A DNA stretch of 64,000 nucleotides from Candidatus Woesebacteria bacterium UBA1430 (GCA_002329465.1 DCTW01000005.1:4131-68130), one strand, 5' to 3'. Numbered from the stretch's first letter, positions 10,512 through 40,611 are shown. Numbers and translations are program-made. Notes: generated from the sequence alone by a model not told the origin.

Positions 10512-10588
10512 CTTACTTTTCATACTATATATACACGAAATACGTTTTTTGCTAAACTCATCTTAGATATAAAAAAATAAATCTGCCC

Positions 10589-21939: not shown

Positions 21940-21943
21940 ATCT

Positions 21944-23269
21944 ATGAAAGCTCAAAACATCTTGGGTCTTAACGCAAGAACTCAACTTTTTTCATATCAA
22001 TACAATAAACCAAAGTCAAAACGCATTGCCTCATCAAAACTGTTAACTGAAAAGGTGCTTAAAAAGGCCGGTATTCCAACTCCGCTAATATATAAAAAAT
22101 TTATAAAGCCGAAAGATATTCTTAATTTTGACTGGAACGGCCTGCCTGAAGCTTTCGTAGTTAAACCAAGCAGGGGACTGGGAGGAAATGGGATCATAGT
22201 CATTAAAAAAAGATCTAAAGACAAAACAGGTTGGATCACAACAAGTAGGAAAAAATTACTCGAAGAAGATTTAAAACTCCATGTTTTAGATATTTTAGAA
22301 GGCGCTTTTAGCATGCACAACTCACCGGACGCAGCCTTTATTCAGGAATACGTACCTCGCCATAAAGCTTTTAGAAAGTACGCATATCGCGGCACGCCTG
22401 ATATAAGAATTATTGTTTTTAACAAAGTGCCGGTAATGGCGATGATGCGTCTTCCCACAAAAGATTCCGGCGGCCGAGCAAATCTCCATCAGGGCGCAAT
22501 AGGTGTGGGAGTTGATATAGCAACAGGTATAACAACAAAGTCTATTTGGTATGGCAATCAGATCCGCTATAAACCGGGCACAAAAAGAAAGCTTCATGGT
22601 ATTAAAATCCCTCACTGGACGGATATATTAAAAATTGCGGTCTTGAGCCAAGAAGCATCAGGGCTTGGACTTTTAGGGGTTGATATTGTTCTTCATCCTA
22701 CCAAAGGGCCAATGGTTCTCGAGTTAAACTATCAGCCGGGTACGCAGATACAGCTTGCAAACATGGCAGGTCTTAGAAAAAGGCTTGAGAGAGTTGAAGA
22801 TCTTAAAGTAAGAGATGCAGAGCATGGTGTTAAAATTGCAAAAGCACTTTTTATGTCTGACTTCTCAGATAGAGTAAAAGCAGATGAAGGGGTAAAAACA
22901 ATTTCGTCATTAGAAGAGATAAAAATAAAAGGCGCTCAAAAAGGGCTCAGAAAAAAGGTTTACGCAAAAGTCGATACGGGTGCCTGGAGAACGTCAATTA
23001 GTAAAAAATTAGCCGAAGAATTAGGACTTCTTAATCAGAATAACATCCTTTGGACTAAAGAATTCAAAAGTTCTCTTGGTAAAGAAGAAAGGCCCGTTAT
23101 AAGCCTTACATTTTGGCTTGCGGGTAGAAAAATCACAACTCCAGCTTCAGTCGCGAAAAGAATGACACTTAAATATCCAATAATAATAGGAAGAAAAAAT
23201 CTTAAAGGTTTCTTGGTAGATCCGCACATTCCCATAGATAAAGTAAAGGAGGCAAGAGAAAAAAAATGA
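21944..23269 (+). CDS. RimK-like ATP-grasp ligase fused to a C-terminal retropepsin-like (clan AA) aspartic protease domain.
   Basis: The ATP-grasp core carries 'VVKPSRGLGGNGIIVI' and 'ELNYQPG'. The C-terminal domain carries the active-site motif 'AKVDTGAWRTS' (D-T-G-A) and 'PIIIGRKNL'. Confidence 0.7.
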   Translation: MKAQNILGLNARTQLFSYQYNKPKSKRIASSKLLTEKVLKKAGIPTPLIYKKFIKPKDILNFDWNGLPEAFVVKPSRGLGGNGIIVIKKRSKDKTGWITTSRKKLLEEDLKLHVLDILEGAFSMHNSPDAAFIQEYVPRHKAFRKYAYRGTPDIRIIVFNKVPVMAMMRLPTKDSGGRANLHQGAIGVGVDIATGITTKSIWYGNQIRYKPGTKRKLHGIKIPHWTDILKIAVLSQEASGLGLLGVDIVLHPTKGPMVLELNYQPGTQIQLANMAGLRKRLERVEDLKVRDAEHGVKIAKALFMSDFSDRVKADEGVKTISSLEEIKIKGAQKGLRKKVYAKVDTGAWRTSISKKLAEELGLLNQNNILWTKEFKSSLGKEERPVISLTFWLAGRKITTPASVAKRMTLKYPIIIGRKNLKGFLVDPHIPIDKVKEAREKK

Positions 23270-24138
23270 AAGTAGCTTTAGTTACCACACTTCCTTCACT
23301 TATTGAAAATAGCCGCATTAAAGAAGAAATAAAAGCCCTAAACTACAGCTTCACACTAATAGATTTAAGCAATTTTTCCTTCAGCGTAGTTGGAGGAAAT
23401 TTAAGCGTAAAAGGCCTTACGGATCAAGAATTCGATATAATAATTTCAAGAGGAATATTTAGCTCAATAAAACCAATTATAGCCGTTCTTCAGGGATTAA
23501 GAAAAAAGGGAATTAAAATATTTGACAACAATTTTCTTCACGATCAATACCTTATAAACAAAACTTCCGATTTGGCAAAGCTGGCTTTAAATAATATCCC
23601 GGTTCCAAACACCGCTCAATCAAGAAATTTTTCCGACTACAAAAATTTATCAAGTAATTTAGGCTTCCCGTTGGTAATCAAATCTACACGCATGGGAAAA
23701 GGAGCAAATGTGTTCAAAATTTCTAATTTAAATGGTCTTTATAGATTTATCGAAGATGAAGAAAATCGAGGTCGTGAAGCTAAAAACTTTATTCTCCAAG
23801 AATTTATTCCTTATAAATACGACCTTCGTGTCTTAATTATCGGAGACAGGGTTTTTACGATGAGAAGAATACCGGCAAAAGGTGAGTTCAGAGCAAATTT
23901 TTCTTTAGGTGGGCATGTCGAAAAATTTGATTTGGATGAAGATGGCCTAAATTTGGCAAAATCTGCCCTTAAGGCAGTTGGTCTCGAAATTGGCGGAGTA
24001 GATTTGCTCATAACTAAAGACAACAAAAAATATGTTCTAGAAGTAAACCATACGGCTGGGTTTGTAGGCATGGAAAAAGCATATAATGAAAATATCGGAA
24101 AAGTATTTGTTGAATACGCCATAGCAAACGCAAGATGA
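23266..24138 (+). CDS. RimK/LysX-like ATP-grasp ligase.
   Basis: The motifs 'PLVIKSTRMGKGANV', 'QEFIPYKYDLRVLIIGDRV' and 'LEVNHTAGF' are present. The gene is translationally coupled to its neighbours. Confidence 0.75.
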   Translation: MKVALVTTLPSLIENSRIKEEIKALNYSFTLIDLSNFSFSVVGGNLSVKGLTDQEFDIIISRGIFSSIKPIIAVLQGLRKKGIKIFDNNFLHDQYLINKTSDLAKLALNNIPVPNTAQSRNFSDYKNLSSNLGFPLVIKSTRMGKGANVFKISNLNGLYRFIEDEENRGREAKNFILQEFIPYKYDLRVLIIGDRVFTMRRIPAKGEFRANFSLGGHVEKFDLDEDGLNLAKSALKAVGLEIGGVDLLITKDNKKYVLEVNHTAGFVGMEKAYNENIGKVFVEYAIANAR

Positions 24139-25037
24139 AAATTTTAATAGTTGGTTTAGTCAAAAATAGCCAGATCGTTCGCCTTCAAGAAGAAGGAGAA
24201 AAACGAGGCCACAAAGTAGAAGGCTGCTACACAAACGAGCTTGTAATAGAAACTGGGTCAGATTTTTTTAACCCGACGCTTAGAGGAAAATCCCTGAAGA
24301 ATTATGATCTAATTTACCTCTGGTCAGCAGGAAAACGCAGATGGGAATGGTACACAGCCTGTCTTTATCTTTGGGAAAAATTTGGAAGCATAATAATTAA
24401 CAAAAAGTGCATCTCCCCCGAGTACAATTTTTACTTAACTCCTGCAATTGATTACTATCTTCAGGTAAAAAATAAACTTCCATTTCCACGCTCCGCAATA
24501 ATATTTTCAACCAAATCAATTGACTCGGTTATCAAGGACTTTAACTTCCCGCTTATTCTTAAAACCTCAGGAGGAAGGCAGGGCAAGGGAGTATTCAAAA
24601 TAGAAGATAAAGATGCCCTAAAAAATAAAAGCGATGAGCTTTTCAAAGTTTCACCGAGCCTGGTTATAAGAGAGTTTATTCCAAACGACGGAGATATTAG
24701 AATTTTTACCGTCGGCTACAAGACAATTGCGGCAATGAAACGAATCCCCACACAAAAAGGCGAATTTAGAAGCAACATAAGTCAAGGAGGTAGGGGTGAA
24801 AATTTTAACCTCGATGATTATCCTAAAATTCGCGATATTGCCGAAAAAGCAAGTAAAATTATGGAAACAGAAATAGCGGGTGTGGACATTATAATTGATA
24901 AAAAGACACGCATGCCGTATATTTTGGAAATTAATCCCGGCCCGCAATTTACAGGGCTTGAAAAGTACACCAAGGTAAACGCCGCTAAAAAAATAATAGA
25001 ATATTTCGAAGAAGTTAAACATGCTATAATTCCATAA
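24135..25037 (+). CDS. RimK-like ATP-grasp ligase (third paralog).
   Basis: The motifs 'PLILKTSGGRQGKGVF', 'REFIPNDGDIRIFTVG' and 'LEINPGP' are present. Confidence 0.7.
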   Translation: MKILIVGLVKNSQIVRLQEEGEKRGHKVEGCYTNELVIETGSDFFNPTLRGKSLKNYDLIYLWSAGKRRWEWYTACLYLWEKFGSIIINKKCISPEYNFYLTPAIDYYLQVKNKLPFPRSAIIFSTKSIDSVIKDFNFPLILKTSGGRQGKGVFKIEDKDALKNKSDELFKVSPSLVIREFIPNDGDIRIFTVGYKTIAAMKRIPTQKGEFRSNISQGGRGENFNLDDYPKIRDIAEKASKIMETEIAGVDIIIDKKTRMPYILEINPGPQFTGLEKYTKVNAAKKIIEYFEEVKHAIIP

Positions 25038-25038
25038 A

Positions 25039-25518
25039 ATGTGCATAGAAGCAGGGGAAAACTGCCTGCTCAAAAGCTTTTGTGATTTTTTGGATTTTAA
25101 CCAACTATCAGAACTTCTTGTTGAGAGGATTATTCTGATACACGAAAACACAATACCTTCCTCGGATATATTTCCTCAGTGCCAAGGTGATTTATACCTT
25201 CGTCTTAAAGAGTTGATAAATGAAACTTTTAAAAACACTGATATTATAAAAAAATGTCACGATTTGATAAATGAAAGTGGGATAACCGGAAATGCTGATA
25301 GGGAACTTTTATGTATGGATATCTTTGGAAAAGACAATAATCTTAATAACCCCTCACAAATATATCTTGCCACCCTTTTTATTTCTTCACCCTTTCTTAA
25401 TCCTACCGAATTTGGGCAACATCTAATTGAAGGGCCAAAACAAATTTTGGGATACACCTATCAATTGTCCGCAAAAGACATTAAAACAGTATTTTCGGAA
25501 TTAAATGAATTACTTTAA
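25039..25518 (+). CDS. Hypothetical protein that starts one nucleotide after the stop of the third ATP-grasp gene.
   Basis: A 159-aa ORF with no recognised domain. Confidence 0.4.
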   Translation: MCIEAGENCLLKSFCDFLDFNQLSELLVERIILIHENTIPSSDIFPQCQGDLYLRLKELINETFKNTDIIKKCHDLINESGITGNADRELLCMDIFGKDNNLNNPSQIYLATLFISSPFLNPTEFGQHLIEGPKQILGYTYQLSAKDIKTVFSELNELL

Positions 25519-25539
25519 AAGCCTTTAGCTAAAAAAATT

Positions 25540-25974
25540 TTACTTAAGCTCTACGCTTGCGCCTGCCGCTTTAAGCTTTTCGGCCGCCTCTTTTGCCTCC
25601 TCGGCCTTGGCGTCTTTTAGAATCTCGGCGGGGACAGCCTCTGTCATATCTTTAGCTTCCTTAAGACCAAGATTTTGATTGATCTCACGGATTGCTTTTA
25701 TGACAGCTATTTTATTTGCACCGGAATCGGTAAGAACAACTGTTTTATTTCCGCCTTCATCAGCCGCAGAATCAGCCGAAGCATCACCGGCGGAAGCCGC
25801 AGGAGCTGCAGCCGGAGCAGCCATAGCAATAGGTGAAACACCGAGTTTGTCCTGCAATTCATTAACAAGATCAGATAGCTCAAGCACGGAAAGCTTGCTA
25901 ATTTCATCGACAATTTTTCCAACCTTCACGCTTACTTTTTTGTTGTCTTTATCTTCTGCTGCCATAATTTTCAC
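25540..25974 (-). CDS. rplL: Ribosomal protein L7/L12.
   Basis: An Ala-rich hinge is followed by the C-terminal 'KEAKDMTEAVP…LKAAGASVELK'. Confidence 0.9.
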   Translation of the reverse strand: MKIMAAEDKDNKKVSVKVGKIVDEISKLSVLELSDLVNELQDKLGVSPIAMAAPAAAPAASAGDASADSAADEGGNKTVVLTDSGANKIAVIKAIREINQNLGLKEAKDMTEAVPAEILKDAKAEEAKEAAEKLKAAGASVELK

Positions 25975-26501
25975 CCCCTTGCCTCAGTTAAAATCAAAAC
26001 AAGTTTTTGCATGTTTGCATTTAAAATTCCTGTTATTCCATACAAAGGTGAAGACACTGCTCCGACAACTCTTGCCAAAAGCTCGTCTTTTCCGGGAAGC
26101 TTTGAAATTCTTATCAATCCCTCTTTATCTTGAAAAACACCTTCAATAACCCCGGCTTTAAAATCCGTAATTTCTGCTTCAAGCTGGAACTTACCAAGTA
26201 TCTGAATGGGGGAAACAGGGTCATCATTCGAAAAAACCAAAGCGGTTTGGTTGGTTAAAGCATTTTCATTATCTGAGATTTCCTTGAATCCGGCATTAAT
26301 AGCAGCAATCTTAAGAAGCGTATTTTTTGCAACAAGCATATTTGCTCCTTGTTCCTTTAGCCTTTTTTTAAGCTCCTGCTGAGACTTTACGTCAAGGCGG
26401 CTATAATCTATTAAAGCAAAGCCCTTAGCAGACTTCATAATAGCCGAAAGCTCTTCTACCTTTTCCTTCTTTTCTGGTTTAATTTTGGTATCTGATTTCA
26501 T
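25971..26501 (-). CDS. rplJ: Ribosomal protein L10.
   Basis: The L10 N-terminal pattern 'EKKEKVEELSAIMKSAKGFALIDYSRL' is present. Confidence 0.9.
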   Translation of the reverse strand: MKSDTKIKPEKKEKVEELSAIMKSAKGFALIDYSRLDVKSQQELKKRLKEQGANMLVAKNTLLKIAAINAGFKEISDNENALTNQTALVFSNDDPVSPIQILGKFQLEAEITDFKAGVIEGVFQDKEGLIRISKLPGKDELLARVVGAVSSPLYGITGILNANMQKLVLILTEARG

Positions 26502-26666: not shown

Positions 26667-27242
26667 ATGACCCAGATTGAAATTTCGATAGGTAAGCGCG
26701 ATTCTGTCCCCGCAACTCTTACAGACATAATAAACAGAAGATATCCCTTACTAACATTGGGAAATAGCGCTTCGTTATTAGAGGATTACCGCAACTGGAA
26801 AATTGATGGCTGTTGCATAAGAGTAGAGGATGTCTATTCTCCTTTCGGAAGAAATTTCCTTGACTATGCAATTTCCAGATGCCGCAAAGCAAAGAAAGGA
26901 GAACCTGCTTACTGTGAACATGGAATCAGGGAACACAATAATTTTTTTGAGGTTCTTAAGATTCTCCAAGCCAGAATTCGTAGCGGAGAATTCTTACTTC
27001 AAAGCCAGGACACGGGGAACAAAAAAGGACTTCCAGAACAAAGATTTATACTAACACCCAACAATTATTTTTCCGATAGAAATATCCCTTATGTTGTTTT
27101 TGAAGGGCTTTCAACAATTGCAAATATTGAAATGCAACAACTTGTATTACCAACACCTTCCGATAAAAGACGCTTTTTTGGCTTAATAACAACTAAAATA
27201 ATAACAGCTAAGCGATCAAATAGAGCTATACTCTTCTCTTAG
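26667..27242 (+). CDS. Hypothetical protein inserted in the ribosomal L1-L10 interval.
   Basis: A 191-aa ORF with no recognised motif, convergent with the two hypotheticals downstream of rplA. Confidence 0.45.
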   Translation: MTQIEISIGKRDSVPATLTDIINRRYPLLTLGNSASLLEDYRNWKIDGCCIRVEDVYSPFGRNFLDYAISRCRKAKKGEPAYCEHGIREHNNFFEVLKILQARIRSGEFLLQSQDTGNKKGLPEQRFILTPNNYFSDRNIPYVVFEGLSTIANIEMQQLVLPTPSDKRRFFGLITTKIITAKRSNRAILFS

Positions 27243-27477
27243 GTTTTTCTGGCAAAGGGAAATCTGGAATATGATTTGAATAGTTCTGAAGCGCCAGCGC
27301 GAATCCGGAATTTTTATTTGCCTCCTCGACCAATTTATTTATGATGGGATCAAAAAAATCAGATAAGTAGCGAGCCTCATCCGAATCATCTATGGGAACT
27401 AAATAGCAAAAAATTGACCCACCATCATTATAATCAACCTGCCCGATGTGAGAATTTCTATTATCGTCAAATGTCAT
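27226..27477 (-). CDS. Hypothetical small protein (83 aa).
   Basis: Its start overlaps the stop of the 180-aa gene ('ATGA'). Confidence 0.4.
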   Translation of the reverse strand: MTFDDNRNSHIGQVDYNDGGSIFCYLVPIDDSDEARYLSDFFDPIINKLVEEANKNSGFALALQNYSNHIPDFPLPEKPKRRV

Positions 27478-28016
27478 TCTAAGAGTCCTTTTTTTAAGCC
27501 CTTTCCTAGAACTATCGACGCTTGATCTTCTTTTAGACGGATCGCCCCACAGGGCTTAGATAATTTGTGAGAATCAAAAAGCGAAGCCTTAAATCTCAAT
27601 AAGTCTCGCAACCGTCCCGTTTCCACTTTAGGTATTTTCTTTTTTTCAGGCCATGCGTCAAGATATTCAGAAACTGGTTCTTTATCCATAAAGCTTTCTC
27701 TATGACTTAGATCCGGGATGCCAATTTGTAATAAACAAAATCTATTGGGATGCATTATCAAATATCGATGGTCAACATTATATCGATCTCGCTCAAGATT
27801 AACCCTTATGGGTTTAAGAATTACAACTCCTCCATCATTAATTTGGGCAGCAATAGGAAGATCGGTCAAATTTTGAATATCGGAAATTCTTTGTATGATA
27901 CTGACACGTCTCTCATAAGCACTAATTGCTGCAAGTTCATTTTGAGCGACGGCTTCCTCAAGGTCACTCAGTATATCAGCAGAGGGGACAGGTATATTAT
28001 CATATCTCTCAATCAT
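27474..28016 (-). CDS. Hypothetical protein (180 aa) coupled to the 3' end of rplA.
   Basis: Its start codon lies 8 nt inside the end of rplA. No family recognised. Confidence 0.45.
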   Translation of the reverse strand: MIERYDNIPVPSADILSDLEEAVAQNELAAISAYERRVSIIQRISDIQNLTDLPIAAQINDGGVVILKPIRVNLERDRYNVDHRYLIMHPNRFCLLQIGIPDLSHRESFMDKEPVSEYLDAWPEKKKIPKVETGRLRDLLRFKASLFDSHKLSKPCGAIRLKEDQASIVLGKGLKKGLLE

Positions 28017-28719
28017 TTAAATCAATCTTCACAGAAGGGGACATACTGGCGCAAACATGCGCGCGATCTACGTTTTTGAGGCCAATAGCGTCAAATATTG
28101 CCTTTATATTTTCAGCAATTTTAGAAGGATCCATTGAAAGCTTGCCGACTGTGGTGTGGATAACAGGCTGCTTTTTCTCCGTCTTTATCGTCACGCTTTT
28201 TGCGGAAAAAAACTCAGCTTCCTTTTCGGATTTTATTAGGGTTTTGTTTTTTGGATTAGGCATAAGTCCGCGTGGACCCAAAATTTTTGCAAAAGGTACC
28301 AATTTGGGCATAAATTCGGCAGTTGCTAGAAGTACATCAAAATCTATTTTTCCCGATTCAAGTTTTTTTATTGTTGCTTCACTTGCTAATTCAATGCGTT
28401 TTTCTTTTCCTGTGGAATGCGGTAATTCAAGATTAATTTGAATATCGTCTTTTTTTGTTTTTATATGAAGCTCTACTGTACCGTCAAACTTTGCAAGATG
28501 TGTTTCCTTAATAAGCTTTAGAGCATCTTTAATTGAATAAAGCTTGTTTTTATCTATTTTGGATTTCATTTCTTTATATCTTTTTCCTCGCTCCTTTTTG
28601 GCTCTTTTGGATGATTTTTTGGTTTCTTCTGCCTCTGGTTTTTCAAAAACCGGTTCAGCATTTTTAAGATCTGAAGCTTTTCCTGTTTCTCCGACTATTG
28701 CCGTTTTAGTTTTTCCCAT
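28009..28719 (-). CDS. rplA: Ribosomal protein L1.
   Basis: The motif 'LVPFAKILGPRGLMPNPKNKT' is present. Confidence 0.9.
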   Translation of the reverse strand: MGKTKTAIVGETGKASDLKNAEPVFEKPEAEETKKSSKRAKKERGKRYKEMKSKIDKNKLYSIKDALKLIKETHLAKFDGTVELHIKTKKDDIQINLELPHSTGKEKRIELASEATIKKLESGKIDFDVLLATAEFMPKLVPFAKILGPRGLMPNPKNKTLIKSEKEAEFFSAKSVTIKTEKKQPVIHTTVGKLSMDPSKIAENIKAIFDAIGLKNVDRAHVCASMSPSVKIDLND

Positions 28720-29140
28720 TGATTTTTACCCCCATGCTCCGTGCAGTTCCGGCGACAATTCGCTTCGCCGCTTCAACATCATCGGTATTCAAATCCGCCA
28801 TTTTTTCCCTTGCTATTTCATTAACTTGCGAATCATTTAAAGTACCTACAATATCCCTGGGCGTTGCCCCGGACCCCTTTTCAATTTTTAATGCCTTTTT
28901 AATCATCTCGGAAACAGGAGCAAGCCTAAGCTCGAAATCAAAGCTTCTATCCTCATAAATAGTAATAACAGCCGGGACAACCTGGCCCTTTTTTTCCGCT
29001 GTTTTGTCATTATAAGCCTTGACAAAGTCCATAATAGCTACACCGTGTTGTCCCAAAATAGGCCCGAGCGGAGCAGCGGGCGTTGCTTCCCCGGCTTTCA
29101 GATTTACCTTAACTGTAGTTAAAACTTTCTTTGCAGCCAT
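28706..29140 (-). CDS. rplK: Ribosomal protein L11.
   Basis: The motif 'PAAPLGPILGQHGVAIMDFVKAYN' is present. Confidence 0.9.
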   Translation of the reverse strand: MAAKKVLTTVKVNLKAGEATPAAPLGPILGQHGVAIMDFVKAYNDKTAEKKGQVVPAVITIYEDRSFDFELRLAPVSEMIKKALKIEKGSGATPRDIVGTLNDSQVNEIAREKMADLNTDDVEAAKRIVAGTARSMGVKINGKN

Positions 29141-29244
29141 ATTTAACCATTAACAATCAATCATTATCCATCAAATAGAGGTATTCATATTCTACTATTT
29201 ATTTGCCAAAAGTAAAGATTAGTATTATAAGATAAATATTAGAT

Positions 29245-29487
29245 ATGCCCGAACGAAGATGCATTCATGCTTGCGTTGCAAAAGGCGAGTGTAATCTAGC
29301 AGACGGTTGTGGATGTAATCTAAGGAGGTTGGTACAGGAGTATCCCGAAAACCAACTTGCCTACATACTGTCTGTTTTGGATAAGTACGCGCAAGGCTGC
29401 GAAGAAATTGACGAGCTTCGTCTGGACATTGAAAGGAGGCTTGACTATTTAAACGGCTCCGCCCCACCGGAAATATTTATTGGATAG
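29245..29487 (+). CDS. Small Cys-rich hypothetical protein.
   Basis: An 80-aa ORF containing 'CIHACVAKGECNLADGCGCN'. Confidence 0.3.
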   Translation: MPERRCIHACVAKGECNLADGCGCNLRRLVQEYPENQLAYILSVLDKYAQGCEEIDELRLDIERRLDYLNGSAPPEIFIG

Positions 29488-29496
29488 GCGTGTTTT

Positions 29497-30126
29497 TTAG
29501 TTACTTTCTTCAAAAGATTTCAAAATAGCAACAAGGTCTTGGGTCAGCGACTCTACCACATTTCTTCTTTCTGTTTTACTTAATTTTTTCCACCTCGAAT
29601 GAGAAGATGTCTTGTTTCCGGCATATCTGTCAATTCCAAAAAAATTTTCCTTGATTATATTTAAAGCATTATCTAGATGCGTAAAAACATCACTTTGTAC
29701 ATCGAAAGTAGGAGCAATCTCATGAAATAGTTTCAGAGCTGGATAAACTACAGCAATGCTGTTTCCTGTTAATTTATTTCTATTTAAGAAATTATTAACC
29801 CTCTCACTTGCGCCAGAACCATAAGTATTTTTCACCTCATCCAAAAGGTTTTGTTTTCTTATAGCCCTTTTGGCATGGCTTTTATATGAATCTTCAATTA
29901 TTGGTAAATTAACATATTCTTCCATGGCCGAGAGTATGTTGCCAACAAATTCTCGATCTTTCTCGTTGGTCACGGCAGATAAGTCATACTCCTCCGTTAA
30001 GCCATAATCTTTTGGCGGAATTATTTTTATCGAATATCCGGACTTTTCGATTATTCCCAAAATATCAGAATCGCTTAACTCTAGGCCTTCTCTTGGGTTA
30101 AATCCCTCAATATCTTCATAATTCAT
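29497..30126 (-). CDS. Hypothetical protein.
   Basis: A 209-aa ORF with no recognised motif. Confidence 0.4.
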   Translation of the reverse strand: MNYEDIEGFNPREGLELSDSDILGIIEKSGYSIKIIPPKDYGLTEEYDLSAVTNEKDREFVGNILSAMEEYVNLPIIEDSYKSHAKRAIRKQNLLDEVKNTYGSGASERVNNFLNRNKLTGNSIAVVYPALKLFHEIAPTFDVQSDVFTHLDNALNIIKENFFGIDRYAGNKTSSHSRWKKLSKTERRNVVESLTQDLVAILKSFEESN

Positions 30127-30159
30127 AAATGGATAAATTTATTATATAATAAATTTTCT

Positions 30160-30933
30160 ATGACCGAAGAGAGCGGTGAGCATCAAGATCCATATGATAT
30201 TAATCGTTTTCTTGATACATTTCTCACAGTTTATGAAGGACATCAAAACGAGCAGGGAACTTTATCTAGAGAAGATAGACCCAGGGAAGTAGCAGCAAAA
30301 GTTAGTTCGGTTGGTACAAAAGCCTACTCTTTAATAAATAGAGATCATGCGCCGGAAGAAATAATTCGCGACTTTGCAGACAAAGCACTGGGTAGAATAA
30401 TTGCAAAATATCCACAGGAAGCAGACCGGATTGCAAAAGCAGTAGGCGAAAATAAATATATTAGTCCTTATTCAAATGAAATTAATAAATATGCAGTAGA
30501 TGTAATAAATAGCCTGACCAGAAAGCAACTTGAAGATTTTACAGACGTTGAACTTGTAAATCTGGTCAGAATTGGTGGCGACAGAAATTCTGTTGTTGAA
30601 AAAATGAGAAAACTTCCTTACAAGGAAGGCTTCAGGCTTCGACTGGCTCAATCTTTGGTTTTTGGCGCGGGAGAAGTAGAGGATTTTCAAAAAATGTCTC
30701 ATGTTATAGGCACAACCTGGGCTGGCATTATTCAACGTCTTGATTATCCGTCTAAACAGGAAGAAAAAATAAAATTAGATGAAGCAAGGTCTCTTATGGA
30801 TCAATCTGTCGTTTTCATAAAAGAAAATTTGCCCGGAATAAGCGAAGAAGACTTAAGAGAATATTTTTATTCTGATCGCACACCCGATGCTATCCAAAAG
30901 CTTATTGAACACACCGGCTTCTCACTGGAATAA
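30160..30933 (+). CDS. Hypothetical protein.
   Basis: A 257-aa ORF with no recognised motif. Confidence 0.4.
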   Translation: MTEESGEHQDPYDINRFLDTFLTVYEGHQNEQGTLSREDRPREVAAKVSSVGTKAYSLINRDHAPEEIIRDFADKALGRIIAKYPQEADRIAKAVGENKYISPYSNEINKYAVDVINSLTRKQLEDFTDVELVNLVRIGGDRNSVVEKMRKLPYKEGFRLRLAQSLVFGAGEVEDFQKMSHVIGTTWAGIIQRLDYPSKQEEKIKLDEARSLMDQSVVFIKENLPGISEEDLREYFYSDRTPDAIQKLIEHTGFSLE

Positions 30934-30962
30934 TTTGCCTTTCCAAGTAGATTTGTAAGTTT

Positions 30963-31586
30963 TTAAACCTTCGTCACCTGAAGAAAATCAAGTTCAACCG
31001 GGGTCTCTCTTCCAAAAATAGAAACAAGCACTTTTACCTTTCCTTTTTCCTCATCAACCTCGTTTATTGTTCCAAGAAAATCGCTAAAAGGCCCATCCGT
31101 AATTTTAACGGCTTCTCCGACGGATAGCTTTGTCTTAAACCTGGGAGCAGGAGATGAAATAAACTTTTGGATATTTGAAACCTCGCTTTCCGAAAGGGGA
31201 GTCGGCTGGTTTCCGATTCCCACAAATCCCGTTATTCCGGGAGTTGTCCTCACGGCAAGCCAGCTATTATCATCCAATATCATTTTTACAAGCAAATACC
31301 CCGGGAAAATTTTTTCCTTAATATTTGCCTTTTTGCCTCCCCTTACTATCACCCTGTCTTGAGTAGGCACAAGAAGTTCAAAAATCCGCTCTTTTAAATT
31401 CATAGACTCAACTCTCTGCCTCAAAGTTTCGGCAACTCTTACTTCATGTCCGCTTGCGGTGTGAACAACATACCACTTGGCATTTTCGTCCGAAGTTTTG
31501 CTAACTACAATATGCCCGGGAATTTTTTTCTTTCCCGTGCCTTTTTCGTAAACGCTTTCTTCTTTTTTATTCTGATCTGTATCCAT
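30963..31586 (-). CDS. nusG: Transcription antiterminator NusG.
   Basis: The NGN domain '[11 protein letters not shown]' and a C-terminal KOW domain are present. Confidence 0.9.
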
Positions 31587-31591
31587 GTATC

Positions 31592-31777
31592 TTATTTTGC
31601 AATTATTAGCTCAACCAATTTTGTAAAGGCTATATCAAGCCCGCCAAGATATGCGCCCACAATAGCTGAAATCAAAAAAACTACAGCAGTAAGCCTAACC
31701 ACCTCATCCTTTTTTGGCCAATCAACTCTGTCAAGCTCACCCTTAACTTCCTTTAAATAGCCAATTACTGCTTTCAC
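31592..31777 (-). CDS. secE: Preprotein translocase subunit SecE.
   Basis: A 61-aa single-transmembrane protein immediately upstream of nusG. Confidence 0.75.
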
Positions 31778-31855
31778 AGTTAGCTATTTTATAACATTTA
31801 AGTAAAAATCACAACAAAAAGGGCGTAGAACAAATAAGGTATAATATATCAAAAT

Positions 31856-32275
31856 ATGTCTAGTAAAGCAGAGAGGCTGCGTCGAGCAAAGTCTGCTGTT
31901 AGCCAGGCAGAAAGAAAAAGGAAAGCAAATTCAATCGACACAAATAGCGATGAGTATAAAAAAATATATACTCATTTTATTCCTATTGTCTTTAATTTAG
32001 ACGTAAGCTCTGCGGATCAGGCAGATTATTGGACAAATCTTGAGCCCGATAACCCCATGACGCTTCAGACCGCTTGTTTGCGAATGAAGATTAATGGAGT
32101 AACACACGAAGATTTAGCAAGACACATTGTTTTGACAAACCCAAAAATAATGGCAGCTTTAGCTTTAGGCGGTTTAACAGATCCTCAAGTAAGAAGCGTA
32201 ATAGAAACACTTGCTAACGCAATTTTTGAGCATTATCCTCAAAACTACAAGGATGGATGGGAAAAGAAAGGGTAA
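31856..32275 (+). CDS. Hypothetical protein.
   Basis: A 139-aa ORF. Confidence 0.35.
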   Translation: MSSKAERLRRAKSAVSQAERKRKANSIDTNSDEYKKIYTHFIPIVFNLDVSSADQADYWTNLEPDNPMTLQTACLRMKINGVTHEDLARHIVLTNPKIMAALALGGLTDPQVRSVIETLANAIFEHYPQNYKDGWEKKG

Positions 32276-32915
32276 AGGCCTGCCCGACTTTAGCTACGAA
32301 TCAAAATTTTGGGAAAAAGGGCTTTTAGTTGGGGGAGCGGATGAGGTAGGTAGAGGCGCTCTCGCAGGCCCTGTAATGGCAGGATTTGTAGTATTTAAGC
32401 CAAAAACAAAGCTCGAAGTGGAAATTAACGACTCAAAGCTTCTTTCTCCGCGAAAAAGGGAAGAAGCAAGTCTCTGGATAAAACAAAACGCTCTTTTGTG
32501 GGCGATAGGAGAGTCCGATGTTAATACAATAAACCAAAAAGGCATTGTAAAAGCCACCCAAAAAGCTTTTCGCCGCGCCATTAGCCATCAATCATCAATC
32601 ATTAACCATTTACTTCTTGATGCCTTTTATGTTCCTTATATCAATGGAATAGGCAAAAAAAATCAAACCCCAATCGTTAAAGGGGATCAAAAGGCTATTT
32701 CAATCGCCGCCGCATCAATAATTGCAAAAGTTGAAAGGGATGCAATAATGACATTTCTTTCAAAACAAAAAACGCTAAAAATCTATGCATGGGACAAAAA
32801 TAAAGGCTACGGCACCAAAGCCCACAAAGAAGCAATCATTCGCTTTGGTCCATCAAAAGAGCATAGAAAACTCTTTATCAGTTCTTTCTTTTCTCAAGCT
32901 CAATCTGAAATCTGA
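32253..32915 (+). CDS. rnhB: Ribonuclease HII.
   Basis: The motifs 'VGGADEVGRGALAGPV' and 'DSKLLS' are present. I took the start at the internal ATG 'MDGKRKG' rather than the track start at 32211. Confidence 0.8.
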   Translation: MDGKRKGKGLPDFSYESKFWEKGLLVGGADEVGRGALAGPVMAGFVVFKPKTKLEVEINDSKLLSPRKREEASLWIKQNALLWAIGESDVNTINQKGIVKATQKAFRRAISHQSSIINHLLLDAFYVPYINGIGKKNQTPIVKGDQKAISIAAASIIAKVERDAIMTFLSKQKTLKIYAWDKNKGYGTKAHKEAIIRFGPSKEHRKLFISSFFSQAQSEI

Positions 32916-33069
32916 CTCTCTTTTTTCTTTCGGCACGCTCCTCGGATTTTTTCTTGTATCTTTCCCGGTCTCTAAACTCTGGGATAATCCCGGAAGATAT
33001 TACCTTTTTTCGAAACCTCGCAATTAATTTTTCGTCTGATTCCCCCTTTTTCTTTTTGACGACGACCAT
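32878..33069 (-). CDS. rpsU: Ribosomal protein S21.
   Basis: The motif 'LIARFRKKVISSGIIPEFRDRERYKKKSEERAERKK' is present. Confidence 0.75.
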   Translation of the reverse strand: MVVVKKKKGESDEKLIARFRKKVISSGIIPEFRDRERYKKKSEERAERKKRVRFQIELEKRKN

Positions 33070-33229
33070 TTATAATTTCGCCTCCTTTCATCAAAGCAAT
33101 AAAATTATCTTTCATAAAGCCATCACCTAAAGCCAATTTTAGCAAATTATACTTCAAAAATCATTCCCTAAATTAATTTTCTTGCTTTCCAAAATTATTT
33201 TGGTATATGATTAATCTAGTCCTATATGT

Positions 33230-33943
33230 ATGGCAAATTTTAAAAAGATTAAGCCGCATTATCTTCTGGGTGTATTTTTAATTTTCTTTTTTGTCATTTC
33301 TTTAGCTATAGCCTTAGTTTTAGTACAAAAATCAAAAGAAACATCTGAATCAAAAGCGGCTGCAACAGCAACTCTAAGTATTGCTCCACAAACATCTGTG
33401 CTTTCTCAAAATCAAAACCAGGAATATAAAATAATGCTTAATTCCTCGGTCCAAAACGAAAAAATATTTTTTGTGCGTGTTGACATCGAATTTGATAAAA
33501 ACGCACTCAATTTAGTTAGTATAACTCCTTCGGAAAATTTTGTAATTCCTCAAAAAACCAGCGGAGAAAGCCTGGTTAGTACTCCGGCAGAAGCCAACTC
33601 AAGTGGCAAGTTTTATGCCGTTTTTGTTGTGCCTTCTGATAAATTCTCAAGCGCTCCATTGGGGAATTTCGAAGTGGCAAGCTTTACACTTAAAGGCGTT
33701 GCTTCTACTAATTCAAGCAGCATTTCATTCATCACAAATTCTATGCAGGTAGTAAGCCTTAATAGCGACCCAAATCAAAGAAATCTTATTATCTCACCTC
33801 AAAACGCTTCGGTTACCGTAGGCTCGGGAGCCTCGAGTAGTCCGTCGCCCGATGATGCCAGAGCGGATATTAACAGCGACGGTATAGTAAATTTACTTGA
33901 TTATATAATCCTTTTGGAAAATTTTGGGAAACGTTTTAACTAA
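33230..33943 (+). CDS. Secreted or anchored protein with a cohesin-like domain and a C-terminal dockerin-like repeat.
   Basis: There is an N-terminal transmembrane/signal segment. The C-terminal motif 'DINSDGIVNLLDYIILLENFG' has the dockerin calcium-binding repeat pattern. Confidence 0.5.
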   Translation: MANFKKIKPHYLLGVFLIFFFVISLAIALVLVQKSKETSESKAAATATLSIAPQTSVLSQNQNQEYKIMLNSSVQNEKIFFVRVDIEFDKNALNLVSITPSENFVIPQKTSGESLVSTPAEANSSGKFYAVFVVPSDKFSSAPLGNFEVASFTLKGVASTNSSSISFITNSMQVVSLNSDPNQRNLIISPQNASVTVGSGASSSPSPDDARADINSDGIVNLLDYIILLENFGKRFN

Positions 33944-35123
33944 TATGAAAATTGGAAATAAAGCTCTTTTCATAATTTTTACTCTATTTATTCTTTTAGG
34001 AATTGCCTCAGCGGTTTTCTTAAGTCAAAAAACCCAAATAACCACCAAAAAAACCGCCCCTGCAACACAGCTTTCTTTGGTAGGTGACAAAGCAGCCAGG
34101 CTAAGCGAAGAATATAATCTCTCCGTAAATATGGAAACAGGCGAAAACAATGTAGTGGGAGCCGAGCTATATATTGATTATGACCCGGAATTTCTTGAGC
34201 CTACTGCGGTTTCAAAAGGAGCTTTTATGCAGTCCGCCGATGTAATAGGCCCAAGAATCGAATCGGGGGAGATCTTTTATACACTTATAGTAAAGCCAAA
34301 CGACACACCTGTTACTGGAAGTGGAACTATAGCCCAAATTACTTTTAAGACCCTAAAAACCGGAAACACAAATATTAGTCTAAACGAAGGGAAAACACTG
34401 GCAGTAGCAGTAGGGGAAGGAAGTGTTAATGTAATCACAAAATATTCACCTTTAAGCCTAAATATTTATAACACGTTTGTATCTTTGCGCTTAAGCCCCG
34501 ATAAATCCGGATACAATGTAGGTGACGAAGTTATAATTTATGCCTGGGTAAATAGTGGAGGAGTAGATTTGGTGGGGATCGAAATGTTTATAAAGTACGA
34601 TTCCAATATGCTTCGCTTTGAAAAAGCAGACGCGCTTGATTATTTCCAAAATCCGGATATTGTAGGTCCCAATGTTAACACTGAAGCGGGCACAATCCAC
34701 TATACACAAATTCTTCCTCCCGAAAATCACAACACAAAAGAGCAGGGGAACATTGCTGCCTTCACCTTCACGGCTCTAAAAAGCGGCCAGTCAAGCTTGT
34801 CGTTTATAAATCAGCAGACAATCGCAGTAGCCTATGGCCAAGGCCAGCAAAACGTGCTGAAAGAAGCCTTTCCGGCTGAAGTTTTCGTATCGGGCGCTAC
34901 GGCCTCGCCCGGTCCTTCATTGAGCCCGAGCCCGACTCCGGGCGGAGTTATTCCGGGCGATATAAATAGGGACGGCAAAGTAGATATCCTGGACTACACA
35001 CTTCTTCTTGAGTATTTTAGTAAAGAATCGTCAGCCTATCCCAATGCGGATCTGAATGCAGATGGCAAGATCAACCTTTTGGATTATATAGTACTTTTCG
35101 AAAATTTCGGCGCTTCTTCATAA
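33924..35123 (+). CDS. Secreted protein with two cohesin-like domains and a C-terminal double dockerin-like repeat.
   Basis: The cohesin-like blocks are 'IDYDPEFLEPTAVSKGAF…IAQITFKTLKTGNTNISL' and 'IKYDSNMLRFEKADALDYF…AAFTFTALKSGQSSLSF'. The dockerin-like repeats are 'GDINRDGKVDILDYTLLLEYF' and 'DLNADGKINLLDYIVLFENFG'. Confidence 0.55.
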   Translation: MGNVLTNMKIGNKALFIIFTLFILLGIASAVFLSQKTQITTKKTAPATQLSLVGDKAARLSEEYNLSVNMETGENNVVGAELYIDYDPEFLEPTAVSKGAFMQSADVIGPRIESGEIFYTLIVKPNDTPVTGSGTIAQITFKTLKTGNTNISLNEGKTLAVAVGEGSVNVITKYSPLSLNIYNTFVSLRLSPDKSGYNVGDEVIIYAWVNSGGVDLVGIEMFIKYDSNMLRFEKADALDYFQNPDIVGPNVNTEAGTIHYTQILPPENHNTKEQGNIAAFTFTALKSGQSSLSFINQQTIAVAYGQGQQNVLKEAFPAEVFVSGATASPGPSLSPSPTPGGVIPGDINRDGKVDILDYTLLLEYFSKESSAYPNADLNADGKINLLDYIVLFENFGASS

Positions 35124-35654
35124 ATGCCAAAAATTCGGATAAAAATTTTTTTGATTGGAATAGCGATTATCGCATTGTCGATTTTTGTTTATTTTACTTT
35201 TTCTTCAAAAAACAATGATTCAGAAGATGGCTTTGATGCAGTTTTTAGCGGGCACGAAAAAGCTTGGCAAAAAGGGGAGATCAATTCGCTTACAATATCG
35301 CTCAAAGAGGGAGTCGGAAAAGACTCCTTTCTTCACGCAGTAGCATTTACCATAAGTTTTGATCCAGAAACGCTCGAGCCGATATCTGTCCATGAAGGCA
35401 CAATCTGGAGCAAAACAAACAAACTCGAAGAAAAGATAGATCATTCCCTCGGATTAATCAAAGTAAGCTACGGAATGGCTTTTGATGGAGAGATTGTTGA
35501 AGGTGCAAAAACGCTCGCTTCGTTCGAATTTAAAGTAATTGGTGATAAGAATGAAGTCGAGATAATTCCACTTGCAAAAAGTGCAGCGCGCATGGGCGAG
35601 CGCGATTACCTTTGGATAAATCTAAAACCGGCTATCCTAAAGATAAAACAATAA
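35124..35654 (+). CDS. Small cohesin-like secreted protein.
   Basis: An N-terminal transmembrane/signal segment is followed by 'TISFDPETLEPISVHEGTIW…ASFEFKVIGDKNEVEI'. Confidence 0.45.
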   Translation: MPKIRIKIFLIGIAIIALSIFVYFTFSSKNNDSEDGFDAVFSGHEKAWQKGEINSLTISLKEGVGKDSFLHAVAFTISFDPETLEPISVHEGTIWSKTNKLEEKIDHSLGLIKVSYGMAFDGEIVEGAKTLASFEFKVIGDKNEVEIIPLAKSAARMGERDYLWINLKPAILKIKQ

Positions 35655-35794
35655 CACCAAAAAGCATCACTAATGCACCTACAATCCTTTCTTTTAATTC
35701 TCGCTCTCCCAAAAATACGCTACCCATAATTATCGTAAATATCATACTTAGCTTAAAAACAGCTGTTGCATTGAAGTGTTATAATATTTCCATT

Positions 35795-36838
35795 ATGGGC
35801 GAAGATCCAGGAAGTCCCCGTGATCCGGAACGCCGATATGCGCGCGTCGATGCTACTCTAAATTACAGAAAAGAACTGGAAGAGAATCTAAACGTGGCTT
35901 ATCCGGAAATAACATGGGAAAATATTGACGATTTTAGAAACGGCAAGATCCCCTTCGGTTCAATTAATCTGAAAGAAAAAGATATAAAATTAATAGGCAA
36001 TGTTTTAACATCTGCACTAGAAAGAGCTTCAGATCCACAAGATGTCGCACACAGCACCCACGGTGCAGAGCACGATGTCTATCAAGAAACTTTATCTGTT
36101 TTAGCAGAACATATTGAAGAAGGACAATATTCGATTAGAAGGTCTCGCTCCTACATTAAAATAACCACAGATGCCGGAATCGAAAGAATTCCGATTGAAA
36201 GATTTGTTCTCGAGGGACAACAATTTTTAAGAACCACTTATCGTCCCGAAGCTATTGAAGAGGCGGAATCCTTAAAAAAAGAAAACGACCTTAAAAAAGT
36301 AAATAAAGAGCTAAGAAGAATATGTTTGAGCCGTGGCGTGCCTTACGGCATTCTCGTAGCTACTTATTTTGGATTTAGCCATGACAATATTTTCTCGTTT
36401 TTTGCTGAACCAAACTTTCAAAAAAGCTTAAAAGATGAACTTGGAGATAAAATCAAAATTCCTACACGCAATCGAAAACAAGATGCAAATATGCTTCGTC
36501 AGCTGTCAAACAATATAGTTGTTAGGACAGCAAGTGGCGAAATTTATCCCCAAAGATCAGCCGATGCGCACCAAAAAGGCCTAGAAACTCTTCTCCATTT
36601 CGGGTGGATAGAAAAAGATCAAGTTAGGAAACCGCCGTTATTAATGAAAGAAGTTGAAGACCTGGCTACCCCCAAGGCAATTCTCGTTGGGATGACAGAG
36701 GCGGCACAAAGAAGAGCCTCGAAATCGTATAAAGATCCAGACAAATCCGAATACATATTAGACGAATATTCTAATGTTTCGACAACGATGGTTGTCACGG
36801 CTTATCTGGAAATCCAACCGGTGGACAGTAACGCCTAG
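35795..36838 (+). CDS. Hypothetical protein.
   Basis: A 347-aa ORF taken from the ATG at 35795. The track start at 35612 overlaps the previous gene. Confidence 0.4.
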   Translation: MGEDPGSPRDPERRYARVDATLNYRKELEENLNVAYPEITWENIDDFRNGKIPFGSINLKEKDIKLIGNVLTSALERASDPQDVAHSTHGAEHDVYQETLSVLAEHIEEGQYSIRRSRSYIKITTDAGIERIPIERFVLEGQQFLRTTYRPEAIEEAESLKKENDLKKVNKELRRICLSRGVPYGILVATYFGFSHDNIFSFFAEPNFQKSLKDELGDKIKIPTRNRKQDANMLRQLSNNIVVRTASGEIYPQRSADAHQKGLETLLHFGWIEKDQVRKPPLLMKEVEDLATPKAILVGMTEAAQRRASKSYKDPDKSEYILDEYSNVSTTMVVTAYLEIQPVDSNA

Positions 36839-37233: not shown

Positions 37234-37352
37234 CCCCTTGCTTAAAAAAACATTCCTACATTCAGAATAGAATTATCACAAGATTCCTGTCAAATTAGAA
37301 ACAATCTGGCACGAAACCAGCTCATTTGATGTTGAAAGATTGGGGTAATTTC

Positions 37353-37919
37353 TCAATCCACTTTCTTCAATAAATTTAGCGTATTGATGAAAATTTCATC
37401 ACCATAAGCTATATCCTGAAATATCTCTGGATGAAATTGAAACCCGTATATTGATTTTGTTTTATGTTTTATCACTTCATAACCTGTTTCAGATTTAGCT
37501 AAACCATGAAGTTCTTCAGATAAAGTCTCTATTGCTATTTTATGGTTTTCATACGCGGTGAAAATTTTTGTTTCTCCAAAAATACCATCAGCATTAACAA
37601 CTTCTACATTGACAAGGCCTTTTTGTTTATCTGGTAAAGTTGAGAGTTTTGCCCCGAAGGCGTAGGAGACAATCTCAGCACCGAGGCAAACTCCTAAAAC
37701 TGGTTTGTTTGTTTTTTTAACCAGTTCTATTTCTTTCTGATAATCTTCTGGGTGTTCAGTAATGTAAGTATGATGACCCCCTGACAGGACTACTAAGTTG
37801 TAGTCGTCTTCGTTGAAATCGTATTTTGAACTTATCACTTTTACTTGCCCGAACTTAGTTAATAAAGATTCTAGATGGGGGAGATACGAAGTCTTATTGT
37901 CTATAAGAAGTATGTTCAT
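37353..37919 (-). CDS. Class I glutamine amidotransferase-like protein.
   Basis: The nucleophile elbow 'GVCLGAEIV' and the motif 'YGFQFHPE' are present. Confidence 0.7.
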   Translation of the reverse strand: MNILLIDNKTSYLPHLESLLTKFGQVKVISSKYDFNEDDYNLVVLSGGHHTYITEHPEDYQKEIELVKKTNKPVLGVCLGAEIVSYAFGAKLSTLPDKQKGLVNVEVVNADGIFGETKIFTAYENHKIAIETLSEELHGLAKSETGYEVIKHKTKSIYGFQFHPEIFQDIAYGDEIFINTLNLLKKVD

Positions 37920-37954
37920 AAAATTAACTATATCAATTTAAGACTTAAAGCGAA

Positions 37955-38030
37955 ATGCGATTTAGGGAAAGTGACTTCAAAATTCAATCCTCCTCAGGGC
38001 TGAGGACAGTTTGATATAGTTTTGTGAGGC
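37955..38030. repeat. Direct repeat B1, about 70 bp and about 80% identical to B2 at 40612-40680.
   Basis: The motif '…ttcaatcctcctcagggctgaggacagtttgatatagttttgtgaggctacaaaaaatgcagg' matches the sequence abutting the tRNA-Trp 3' end. It contains the palindrome 'cctcagggctgagg'. Confidence 0.6.
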
Positions 38031-38093
38031 TACAAAAAATGCAGGGGTTAGTAAACTTAGTCAGGAACTTCTATGTTAGTATAAATTATCTAA

Positions 38094-38414
38094 ATGTTAC
38101 TAAAGATAATTATTATCATAAATTTAGTTTGGCAGTCAGTTTTTCTAATAGGAGCAGTTGAGTCAATTAGTAAACTAAGCAAACTAGTGACTGGACACAC
38201 ATTCACTTTTGGTTATCTTTGGCTCACCTTGCTTTGGGGTTTTGGAGTGTCTGCAAACTTGCTTCTCTTAATTTATTTGCTGAAAACTAAGAAAAATATT
38301 GAGATAAAAAAACAAGTTATTATTGGTTTACTATTGGTAATGATACCAATCACTATTTCTTACATTATTGGGGGCTACTATCAACTAAACCTCATCAATA
38401 TTGTTTCGCAATAG
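38094..38414 (+). CDS. Small hypothetical membrane protein.
   Basis: A 106-aa ORF with three hydrophobic helices. Confidence 0.35.
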   Translation: MLLKIIIIINLVWQSVFLIGAVESISKLSKLVTGHTFTFGYLWLTLLWGFGVSANLLLLIYLLKTKKNIEIKKQVIIGLLLVMIPITISYIIGGYYQLNLINIVSQ

Positions 38415-38424
38415 CCTAGGCTCT

Positions 38425-38545
38425 AATCGAGGTTAAAGTGCAGGCTTTGGTTGCCAGACTTCGAACAATTTGGTGTGAATTAAACACTTTTGAGATTGGG
38501 AAAATAGGCCAGTTTGTCAATCCAGAACCAGCTTTTAGTTTTAGT
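38425..38545. repeat. Direct repeat A1, about 115 bp and about 88% identical to A2 at 39785-39905.
   Basis: 'ggctttggttgccagacttcgaacaatttggtgtgaatt…aaaataggccagtttgtcaatccagaaccagctttt' is repeated upstream of both the 38570 and 39918 genes. Confidence 0.65.
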
Positions 38546-38569
38546 TGATTTCAAGTAAAATATCAGCAG

Positions 38570-39641: not shown

Positions 39642-39784
39642 AATAGAGAATAACACTGACATGGTGAAACTAAGACTAATTTCGCTGGTAAATTACACAA
39701 AGGTGATGATCCAAAAGAATTGACTGAATTAGGCAAAAAGCAAACAAGAATAATGGCAATGACTATTAAAAATTAACAAACCCG

Positions 39785-39905
39785 ATCTAGCCCAGAGTAG
39801 GCTTTGGTTGCCAGACTTCGAACAATTTAGTGTGAATTGAATAGCTTTGAGATTGAGAAAATAGGCCAATTCGTTAATCCAGAACCTGCTTTTAAGTTTG
39901 TTTAG
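39785..39905. repeat. Direct repeat A2, the partner of A1.
   Basis: See A1. Confidence 0.65.
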
Positions 39906-39917
39906 TTTTTGATATAG

Positions 39918-40607: not shown

Positions 40608-40611
40608 CTTA

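Follow-up and report, generated by a model that had tools for sequence, protein, structure and literature searches.

The cluster around nusG and rplK, which ranks among the most conserved gene neighbourhoods of bacteria, is split in a 64,000-nucleotide stretch of DNA from Candidatus Woesebacteria bacterium UBA1430 (GCA_002329465.1, DCTW01000005.1:4131-68130; in the following the window, with positions counted from its first letter). The distance from rplK to nusG amounts to 1,822 bp (29141-30962) and holds exactly three open reading frames (ORFs), here called B80, B209 and B257. This raises the question whether the arrangement is real, what kind of genes are concerned and by what route they came to lie there. 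The reading we regard as likely is that of a permissive slot between operons, present throughout the clade and holding native, fast-evolving and lineage-restricted genes. In Woesebacteria and Microgenomates the neighbourhood is routinely split at old operon junctions by orphan genes with a fast turnover.

Genes in the nusG-rplK interval

The interval and its two conserved flanks are composed as follows; identities refer to the nearest genome, Ca. Woesebacteria isolate Ch104b.

28706-29140, minus strand: rplK, encoding ribosomal protein L11 (Pfam Ribosomal_L11_N and Ribosomal_L11); conserved flank, 96% amino acid identity
29245-29487, plus strand: B80, 80 amino acids (aa) with six Cys, acidic (isoelectric point, pI, 4.7); divergent from rplK
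29497-30126, minus strand: B209, 209 aa, acidic (pI 5.2), predicted all-helical and cytoplasmic; on the strand of nusG and rplK
30160-30933, plus strand: B257, 257 aa, acidic (pI 5.1), predicted all-helical (13 helices) and cytoplasmic; convergent with nusG, 29 nt apart
30963-31586, minus strand: nusG (Pfam NusG and KOW); conserved flank, 99% amino acid identity

The ORFs are densely packed, with spacers of 104, 9, 33 and 29 nt from rplK through B80, B209 and B257 to nusG. A preliminary description of the locus had reported three unrecognised genes within 1.8 kb, an 80-aa Cys-rich protein, a 209-aa minus-strand protein and a 257-aa plus-strand protein, and both the ORF listing and Pfam agree with it. 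With pI values of 4.7-5.2 the three proteins are acidic; their hydropathy (GRAVY) values are negative, and their sequences contain no obvious signal peptide or transmembrane stretch.

A chimeric assembly at the junctions had been named as the finding that would overturn this picture. The B257 protein is identical residue for residue on 21 contigs (JGI, ENA and many SRA runs) which share gene order and junctions, and the NusG of the window is identical on 24 independently assembled contigs from the same sources, again with the same junctions on all. Since the junctions recur on 21 and 24 independent contigs, the objection was dismissed: the nusG-rplK arrangement is genuine and no assembly artefact.

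The two longer ORFs are real genes of native composition. From the base composition of the window (stop-codon frequency of about 0.065) approximately 3e-4 ORFs of at least 257 codons and 8e-3 ORFs of at least 209 codons are expected in it by chance. Codon-usage log-odds were 0.312 for B257 and 0.212 for B209, as compared with 0.265 +/- 0.064 for other genes of the window and -0.02 +/- 0.10 off frame, and the GC contents of the two ORFs were 0.346 and 0.380 versus 0.389 +/- 0.030 for the window. The compositional deviation that had been proposed as a check was thus not observed, GC and codon usage of both genes lying within the range of the window.

The statistical case for B80 is weaker. Its length alone is not significant, an alternative ORF of 80 aa exists on the opposite strand, its GC content is atypical (0.465; mean of the window, 0.389) and its codon score is low (0.051). 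These properties would suit an artefact of another kind than a chimera, namely a spacer without coding function in which ORFs arose by chance, or an rplK leader that folds as a structured RNA. On the other hand, the plus frame of B80 is the only one that is open in three diverged alleles, the opposite-strand ORF being broken in two of them, and the differences from the Ch104b orthologue (80% amino acid identity) are enriched at third codon positions (8/5/18). With its frame kept open and this third-position excess, B80 is probably a genuine protein gene. Rfam gave nothing for the B80 region at the gathering threshold and merely a chance viral stem-loop at E <= 5, and the predicted RNA fold was no more stable than that of shuffled sequences on either strand (z-scores of -0.58 and -0.94). 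A structured RNA, a riboswitch or an rplK leader was rejected on these grounds. As the lengths of B209 and B257 are, in addition, very improbable by chance, their codon bias is gene-like and the junctions are repeated in 24 independent assemblies, we consider an artefact of either kind extremely improbable.

Within B80 the N-terminus is variable and contains Cys and His residues, whereas the C-terminus is conserved and helical. A C-x-H...C...C pattern is kept in three alleles and may constitute a metal site. Strains of the species, which are about 99.9% identical, were compared by nucleotide alignment of 10 loci (L001-L010), and a replaced segment became apparent in the variable part.

29256-29403: allele-swap segment of B80 (nucleotide alignment; megablast break at 29255/29404)

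In strains L001 and L003 this segment is exchanged for a highly diverged in-frame version, which results in a 92-aa protein, while the flanks are 100% identical. The swap would be explained by recombination with a diverged allele. An origin by a diversity-generating retroelement was rejected: the changes affect all four bases and not adenines alone, and indels are present.

None of the three proteins matched a family in Pfam, NCBIfam, PHROG (no match below E 0.01) or the defence models of PADLOC-DB (no match at E <= 0.1), and PDB sequence searches yielded no match with E < 0.2. Structure prediction, which had been recommended for the two longer proteins, contributed the all-helical prediction and did not lead to a fold: AlphaFold2 models of both were too poor for fold assignment (predicted local distance difference test, pLDDT, of about 47). 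Foldseek searches against PDB returned generic helical-repeat matches only (E >= 0.046, template modelling score of about 0.25, none at E <= 1e-3), which were rejected as uninformative.

Relatives of both long proteins were found in the corresponding interval of other genomes, one for each family. B209 has a sole remote homologue among the loci of relatives, P0003 from locus L013 (212 aa, 23% identity, E 6e-12), which lies in line between nusG and rplK. Its ATG follows the nusG stop codon by 6 nt, and a promoter-like sequence (TTGATT...TATAAT) is situated after the gene, ahead of rplK; in this genome secE-nusG very probably has P0003 as its third gene. A full HMMER search with B257 against 1.84 billion representatives retrieved just P0005 and P0004. 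P0005 (123 aa, E 1.6e-4, 29-30% identity over residues 1-105 of B257) is encoded on the 1.2-kb contig L091, convergent to nusG and between nusG and rplK, with the rplK start approximately 107 nt upstream. It thereby shares slot and orientation with B257, and the NusG of L091 groups with the same Woesebacteria. P0004 was treated as uninformative, the match being confined to a short repeat motif. In a word-indexed search of 5.8 billion protein clusters, B257, B209 and P0003 matched only themselves, and profile searches among the 404 slot ORFs of relatives yielded no additional remote homologues. Two scans of metagenome contigs with alignments of B209 and B80 returned nothing from a collection which is uninformative here, as the window's own lineage was not recovered from it either. 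While NusG is 84% identical between the window and L013, the slot residents reach just 23-30% with their homologues. This suggests that the three ORFs are not random recent arrivals and that at least the B209 and B257 families are old residents of the slot which diverge far faster than their neighbours.

The nusG-rplK slot in related genomes

The comparison of synteny among relatives that had been suggested in the preliminary description was carried out by a NusG-based scan with one genome per GTDB species. It gave 80 loci in which the genes of the cluster were placed by tblastn. Ch104b ranked first (99% NusG identity), followed by other Woesebacteria and then by Shapiro-, Davies- and Gottesmanbacteria. 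Order and orientation secE-nusG ... rplK-rplA are the same in 74 of the 75 loci that have both genes; locus L026 is rearranged. In the 74 collinear Microgenomates loci the slot proved variable: the nusG-rplK gap ranges from 2 to 4,741 bp, lengths being taken from the ends of high-scoring segment pairs and possibly overestimated by a few tens of bp. It measures at most 150 bp in 28 loci, more than 400 bp in 37 and more than 1 kb in 26. Among the 16 relatives at the level of Woesebacteria (NusG at least 73% identical), 13 have a gap of more than 400 bp. The gap between rplA and rplJ likewise varies, from 21 to 7,831 bp, and exceeds 400 bp in 29 of 41 loci. A filled nusG-rplK gap is consequently the majority state in Woesebacteria and unusual only with respect to textbook bacteria. 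The earlier statement that such insertions are unusual holds in comparison with model bacteria but not inside the clade, where half of the 74 Microgenomates share the feature.

The clearest view of the turnover was obtained from Ch104b (L011; CP055307.1, complete, 901,682 bp), whose aligned blocks show 85-91% nucleotide identity with the window in blastn.

29487-30966: cassette of 1,480 bp that cannot be aligned to Ch104b; its edges are exactly the stop codon of B80 and the stop codon of nusG

The blocks on either side align at 91.0% (28004-29486) and 91.3% (30967-35675). At the position of the cassette Ch104b carries 1,486 unrelated bp with an ORF of 86 aa and the gene of a methyltransferase-like protein of 379 aa. 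The methyltransferase-like protein is a tandem duplication, its N- and C-terminal halves being 26% identical, and contains Rossmann-type motifs. Since B209 and B257 are predicted to be all-helical, the difference between the two genomes is a replacement and not a divergence. A search of the window for the methyltransferase-like family of Ch104b was negative. Other segments that do not align to Ch104b also coincide with orphan genes, namely 25033-25536 (a 159-aa ORF), 27219-28003 (the ORFs A83 and A180) and 35676-36832; a further alignment break was found at 37296-40677.

Methyltransferase-like genes recur in the slot of relatives. One family is represented in Ch104b, L012 and L022, in each case convergent to nusG, and the slot of L017 contains a different methyltransferase (Pfam MTS). 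Positions are those of the respective loci.

L011 (Ch104b), 10637-11776: methyltransferase-like gene
L012, 10606-11220: methyltransferase-like gene
L022, 10632-11207: methyltransferase-like gene
L017, about 10580-11221: methyltransferase gene

The matches of these genes to Pfam are to generic methyltransferases, near or below threshold, and PrmA is not among the families listed. It is conceivable that they take part in the methylation of L11. In L031 the slot is occupied by an IS200-like Y1 transposase and a beta-lactamase-like gene, with BLAST relatives of both in the slots of L032 and L079 and of the transposase-like gene alone in L067. Slots of other loci encode secreted Cys-rich proteins or proteins with a twin-arginine translocation (TAT) signal, as well as many ORFs without a family. 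On the NusG tree, methyltransferase-like, B209-like and B257-like residents are scattered patchily. The designation of the locus as a hotspot for accessory genes was broadly borne out, the nusG-rplK and rplA-rplJ slots both being filled by different genes in related genomes.

Turnover, origin and possible role of the slot genes

Based on these comparisons, the nusG-rplK interval would be a permissive gap between operons (secE-nusG, rplKA and rplJL) that has persisted as a long-lived variable slot in Woesebacteria and Microgenomates. Its residents probably evolve very fast relative to the flanking core genes, and its content would turn over between species as genes are replaced or differentially lost, the breakpoints lying at gene borders. 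Homologous recombination through the highly conserved flanks would be the most likely route of this turnover, a mechanism we infer because the borders are sharp and the distribution on the NusG tree is patchy. B80, B209 and B257 would then be small, acidic, helical and cytoplasmic proteins that are transcribed separately from short-leader promoters of the type common in this genome. They would be accessory genes outside the ribosomal operons, and the ribosomal genes would retain promoters of their own.

Two sites in the intergenic spacers are of relevance in this context.

30135-30156: perfect palindrome of 22 bp, AAATTTATTATATAATAAATTT, in the 33-bp spacer between the start codons of B209 and B257, with TATAAT on both strands
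29189-29216, minus strand: promoter-like site of rplK, TTTACT-16-TAGAAT (9/12 consensus matches), in the 104-bp divergent spacer

The palindrome is the only perfect one of at least 16 bp in the window, and 22 bp were reached in 2 of 30 Markov simulations. On the plus strand the spacer reads TTCATA-17-TATAAT (10/12 consensus matches). We interpret the element as a putative bidirectional promoter which would yield leaderless or short-leader mRNAs. In the promoter consensus scan of the region the total count was not above that of shuffled sequences, and the individual sites are pattern matches. A Shine-Dalgarno-like motif was present in just 6 of the 58 window ORFs of at least 100 aa, and in many window genes, B209 and B257 included, a TATAAT box precedes the start codon by 6-12 nt. 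This suggests that most mRNAs of this organism are leaderless or have a short leader.

In Escherichia coli, rplK and rplJ each possess a promoter of their own. Work on Proteobacteria assigns secE-nusG to one operon and rplKAJL-rpoBC to another and describes insertions of several genes between operons of this kind (PMC6735719). Against this background the inserts, whose mixed strands had earlier been held to break a co-transcription of nusG with rplK, probably do not disrupt an obligatory transcription unit, and in the window rplK has its own promoter-like site. As in the proteobacterial insertions, the inserts of the window lie exactly at the presumed operon junctions of the same ancient cluster and would leave the operons intact. 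The cases differ in that the separations occur in some proteobacterial lineages only and many Enterobacteriaceae retain the old order (PMC6735719), whereas in Woesebacteria and Microgenomates the filled gap is the majority, its content turns over between near-species and most of the ORFs are without a family. Unlike the nusG-rplK split, the split between rplA and rplJ falls inside one operon of the proteobacterial scheme (rplKAJL-rpoBC; PMC6735719).

The slot also resembles another known phenomenon. Chromosomal hotspots and flexible genomic islets are flanked by core genes, differ in content between relatives and have their breakpoints at gene borders, and the slot of the window has syntenic core flanks, varying content and gene-border breakpoints as well. 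It departs from flexible islets in that integrase, tRNA, att repeats, compositional deviation and recognisable defence or mobility cargo are absent, and in that two cargo families have been faithful to the slot over a long divergence. The genomes of the Candidate Phyla Radiation (CPR) or Patescibacteria are rich in orphan genes, which code for small proteins without detectable homologues and have native codon usage. B209 and B257 are like them, with no detectable homologues among billions of metagenomic proteins and with native codon usage, but differ from CPR orphans in general in that their position in a widely conserved neighbourhood allows positional orthology to be traced at 23-30% identity. 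The phenomenon is thus a further instance of known things, inter-operon insertions and orphan-rich CPR genomes, and the proteins represent uncharacterised families. In the literature we found no prior descriptions of nusG-rplK inserts in CPR. The split neighbourhood is useful for the annotation and the synteny-based binning of CPR genomes, and it makes the positional orthology of orphan genes amenable to study, as the families are traceable at such low identity thanks to the fixed slot alone.

In place of a long-lived slot, the interval could represent a recently acquired foreign islet, i.e., what remains in a hotspot of a mobile element, a prophage or an anti-phage defence system that inserted there. 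This would be in line with the variation of content between close genomes, with the IS200-like transposases in the same slot of some Microgenomates, and with the allele swap of B80 together with clusters of single nucleotide polymorphisms (SNPs) among strains in orphan genes neighbouring the slot. However, no slot ORF of the window matched an integrase, transposase or recombinase in Pfam, no flanking repeats were found at the slot, and the nearest tRNA gene is about 10 kb away. Besides the lack of PHROG and PADLOC relatives, tblastn against 50,697 phage records and IMG/VR gave no match for the slot proteins. B209 and B257 are native in GC content and codon usage, the cassette is fixed in 24/24 contigs with identical NusG, and the remote homologues in the same slot of other Woesebacteria point to a long residence. 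A foreign islet of this kind is therefore quite unlikely. The 'acquisition' of the genes, as put forward in the preliminary description, is not shown either: given native composition, the absence of mobility genes and the same-slot homologues of B209 and B257, a history in which the genes resided there for long, diverged fast and were differentially lost or replaced fits at least as well. A type II toxin-antitoxin pair was considered separately and rejected, as B209 and B257 are divergent, comprise 209 and 257 aa and match no family.

A lineage-specific ribosome-associated function had also been proposed, and in its general form it would mean that the residents have NusG or the L11/L1 stalk as their target or partner, serve as modifiers, assembly factors or regulators and are kept in the slot for co-regulation. 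Homologues of B209 and B257 were found in the nusG-rplK slot only, the B209 homologue of L013 starts 6 nt behind nusG as the very probable third gene of secE-nusG, and methyltransferase-like genes recur beside nusG and rplK in relatives. In other bacteria, PrmA is known to methylate L11. Like PrmA, proteins encoded beside rplK in Ch104b, L012, L022 and L017 have Class-I S-adenosylmethionine (SAM)-methyltransferase-like domains; the difference is that the window lacks a methyltransferase and that the genes of the relatives have generic methyltransferase matches and no PrmA match among the families listed. While slot fidelity, the coupling in L013 and the methyltransferase-like genes near rplK are positional hints, no similarity to families of ribosomal proteins, NusG partners or PrmA was found in Pfam, NCBIfam and PDB sequence searches. 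Moreover, the content differs even at about 90% nucleotide identity, Ch104b lacking B209 and B257 and the window lacking the methyltransferase, and the slot is empty in 28 of 74 relatives. Acidity and fast evolution set the proteins apart from typical ribosome-binding factors, and low rearrangement rates could by themselves account for the positional conservation. On the basis of these sequence comparisons we hold a ribosome- or NusG-linked role of the slot genes to be a possible but unlikely explanation. A more far-reaching version is improbable in our view: B209, B257, B80 and the methyltransferase-like genes of the sister species might be interchangeable, fast-evolving and slot-specific partners of NusG or of the L11/L1 stalk in a CPR-specific layer that regulates or modifies transcription-translation coupling, the B209 family originally having been the third gene of secE-nusG, as in L013. 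If the residents did act on NusG or L11, the significance of the slot would be much greater.

The preferred reading of a permissive slot between operons with native, fast-evolving residents has to be weighed against several observations. The data agree with a larger ancestral slot and differential loss as well as they do with recombination. A functional link to NusG or L11 could underlie both slot fidelity and the close in-line coupling (6 nt) of nusG and the B209 homologue in L013. The position of the slot at a boundary of transcription units is deduced from the promoter-like sites before rplK and in the B209/B257 spacer, the scan total for which was not above shuffles, and from operon borders that are proteobacterial. 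B209 and B257 are invariant in the 10 strain loci, where the identity of B257 is inherent in the look-up and that of B209 is not, and purifying selection is consequently not measurable there. Finally, each of the two families has just one remote homologue.

Other junctions and neighbouring genes

The remaining genes of the ancestral cluster are located as follows.

25540-25974, minus strand: rplL
25971-26501, minus strand: rplJ
28009-28719, minus strand: rplA
31592-31777, minus strand: secE
40679-40750, minus strand: tRNA-Trp
41819-41992, minus strand: rpmG

The order in the window is rpmG/tRNA-Trp, 8.9 kb, secE-nusG, 1.8 kb, rplKA, 1.5 kb and rplJL, and rpoBC does not follow rplL. As every junction of the ancestral ribosomal cluster is interrupted in this genome, the earlier count of 'two independent insertions' was overstated.

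In the rplA-rplJ insert, the 83-aa and 180-aa ORFs (27226-28016, minus strand) represent a frameshifted 263-aa gene with a 1-nt indel near 27489. The gene is intact in L001, L003, L004, L005 and L007 and split in the window, L002, L006 and L008-L010. A further ORF of this insert (191 aa, 26667-27242, plus strand) is a paralogue of the orphan gene at 35612-36838 (plus strand), with 25% identity over 140 aa (E 1e-6), from which we conclude that an orphan family is spread over variable slots. The gene at 35612-36838 is missing from Ch104b, where 25 bp correspond to 35676-36832 of the window.

Upstream of nusG, an ORF of 139 aa (31856-32275, plus strand) is divergent from secE and conserved in the Woesebacteria L011, L014, L018 and L029; strains with 99.9% identity elsewhere differ in it by a cluster of eight SNPs (31957-32198). 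The stretch from tRNA-Trp/rpmG to secE includes a segment that varies between species (37296-40677) and between strains (38045-40712). It carries GATase, His_Phos_1 and HAD hydrolase genes, and small orphan ORFs in their place in other strains.

At the usual place of rpoBC, adjoining rplL, a gene for a 7TM_transglut protein and three ATP-grasp genes (ATPgrasp_ST/RimK-like) are found (21040-25037, plus strand), a system of the peptide-ligase type. Three successive genes at 33230-35654 (plus strand) include those of cohesin- and dockerin-domain proteins, an unusual cell-surface machinery for a CPR genome of 0.9 Mb. Farther away, a single ORF of 2,378 aa extends from 10589 to 17725 on the plus strand.

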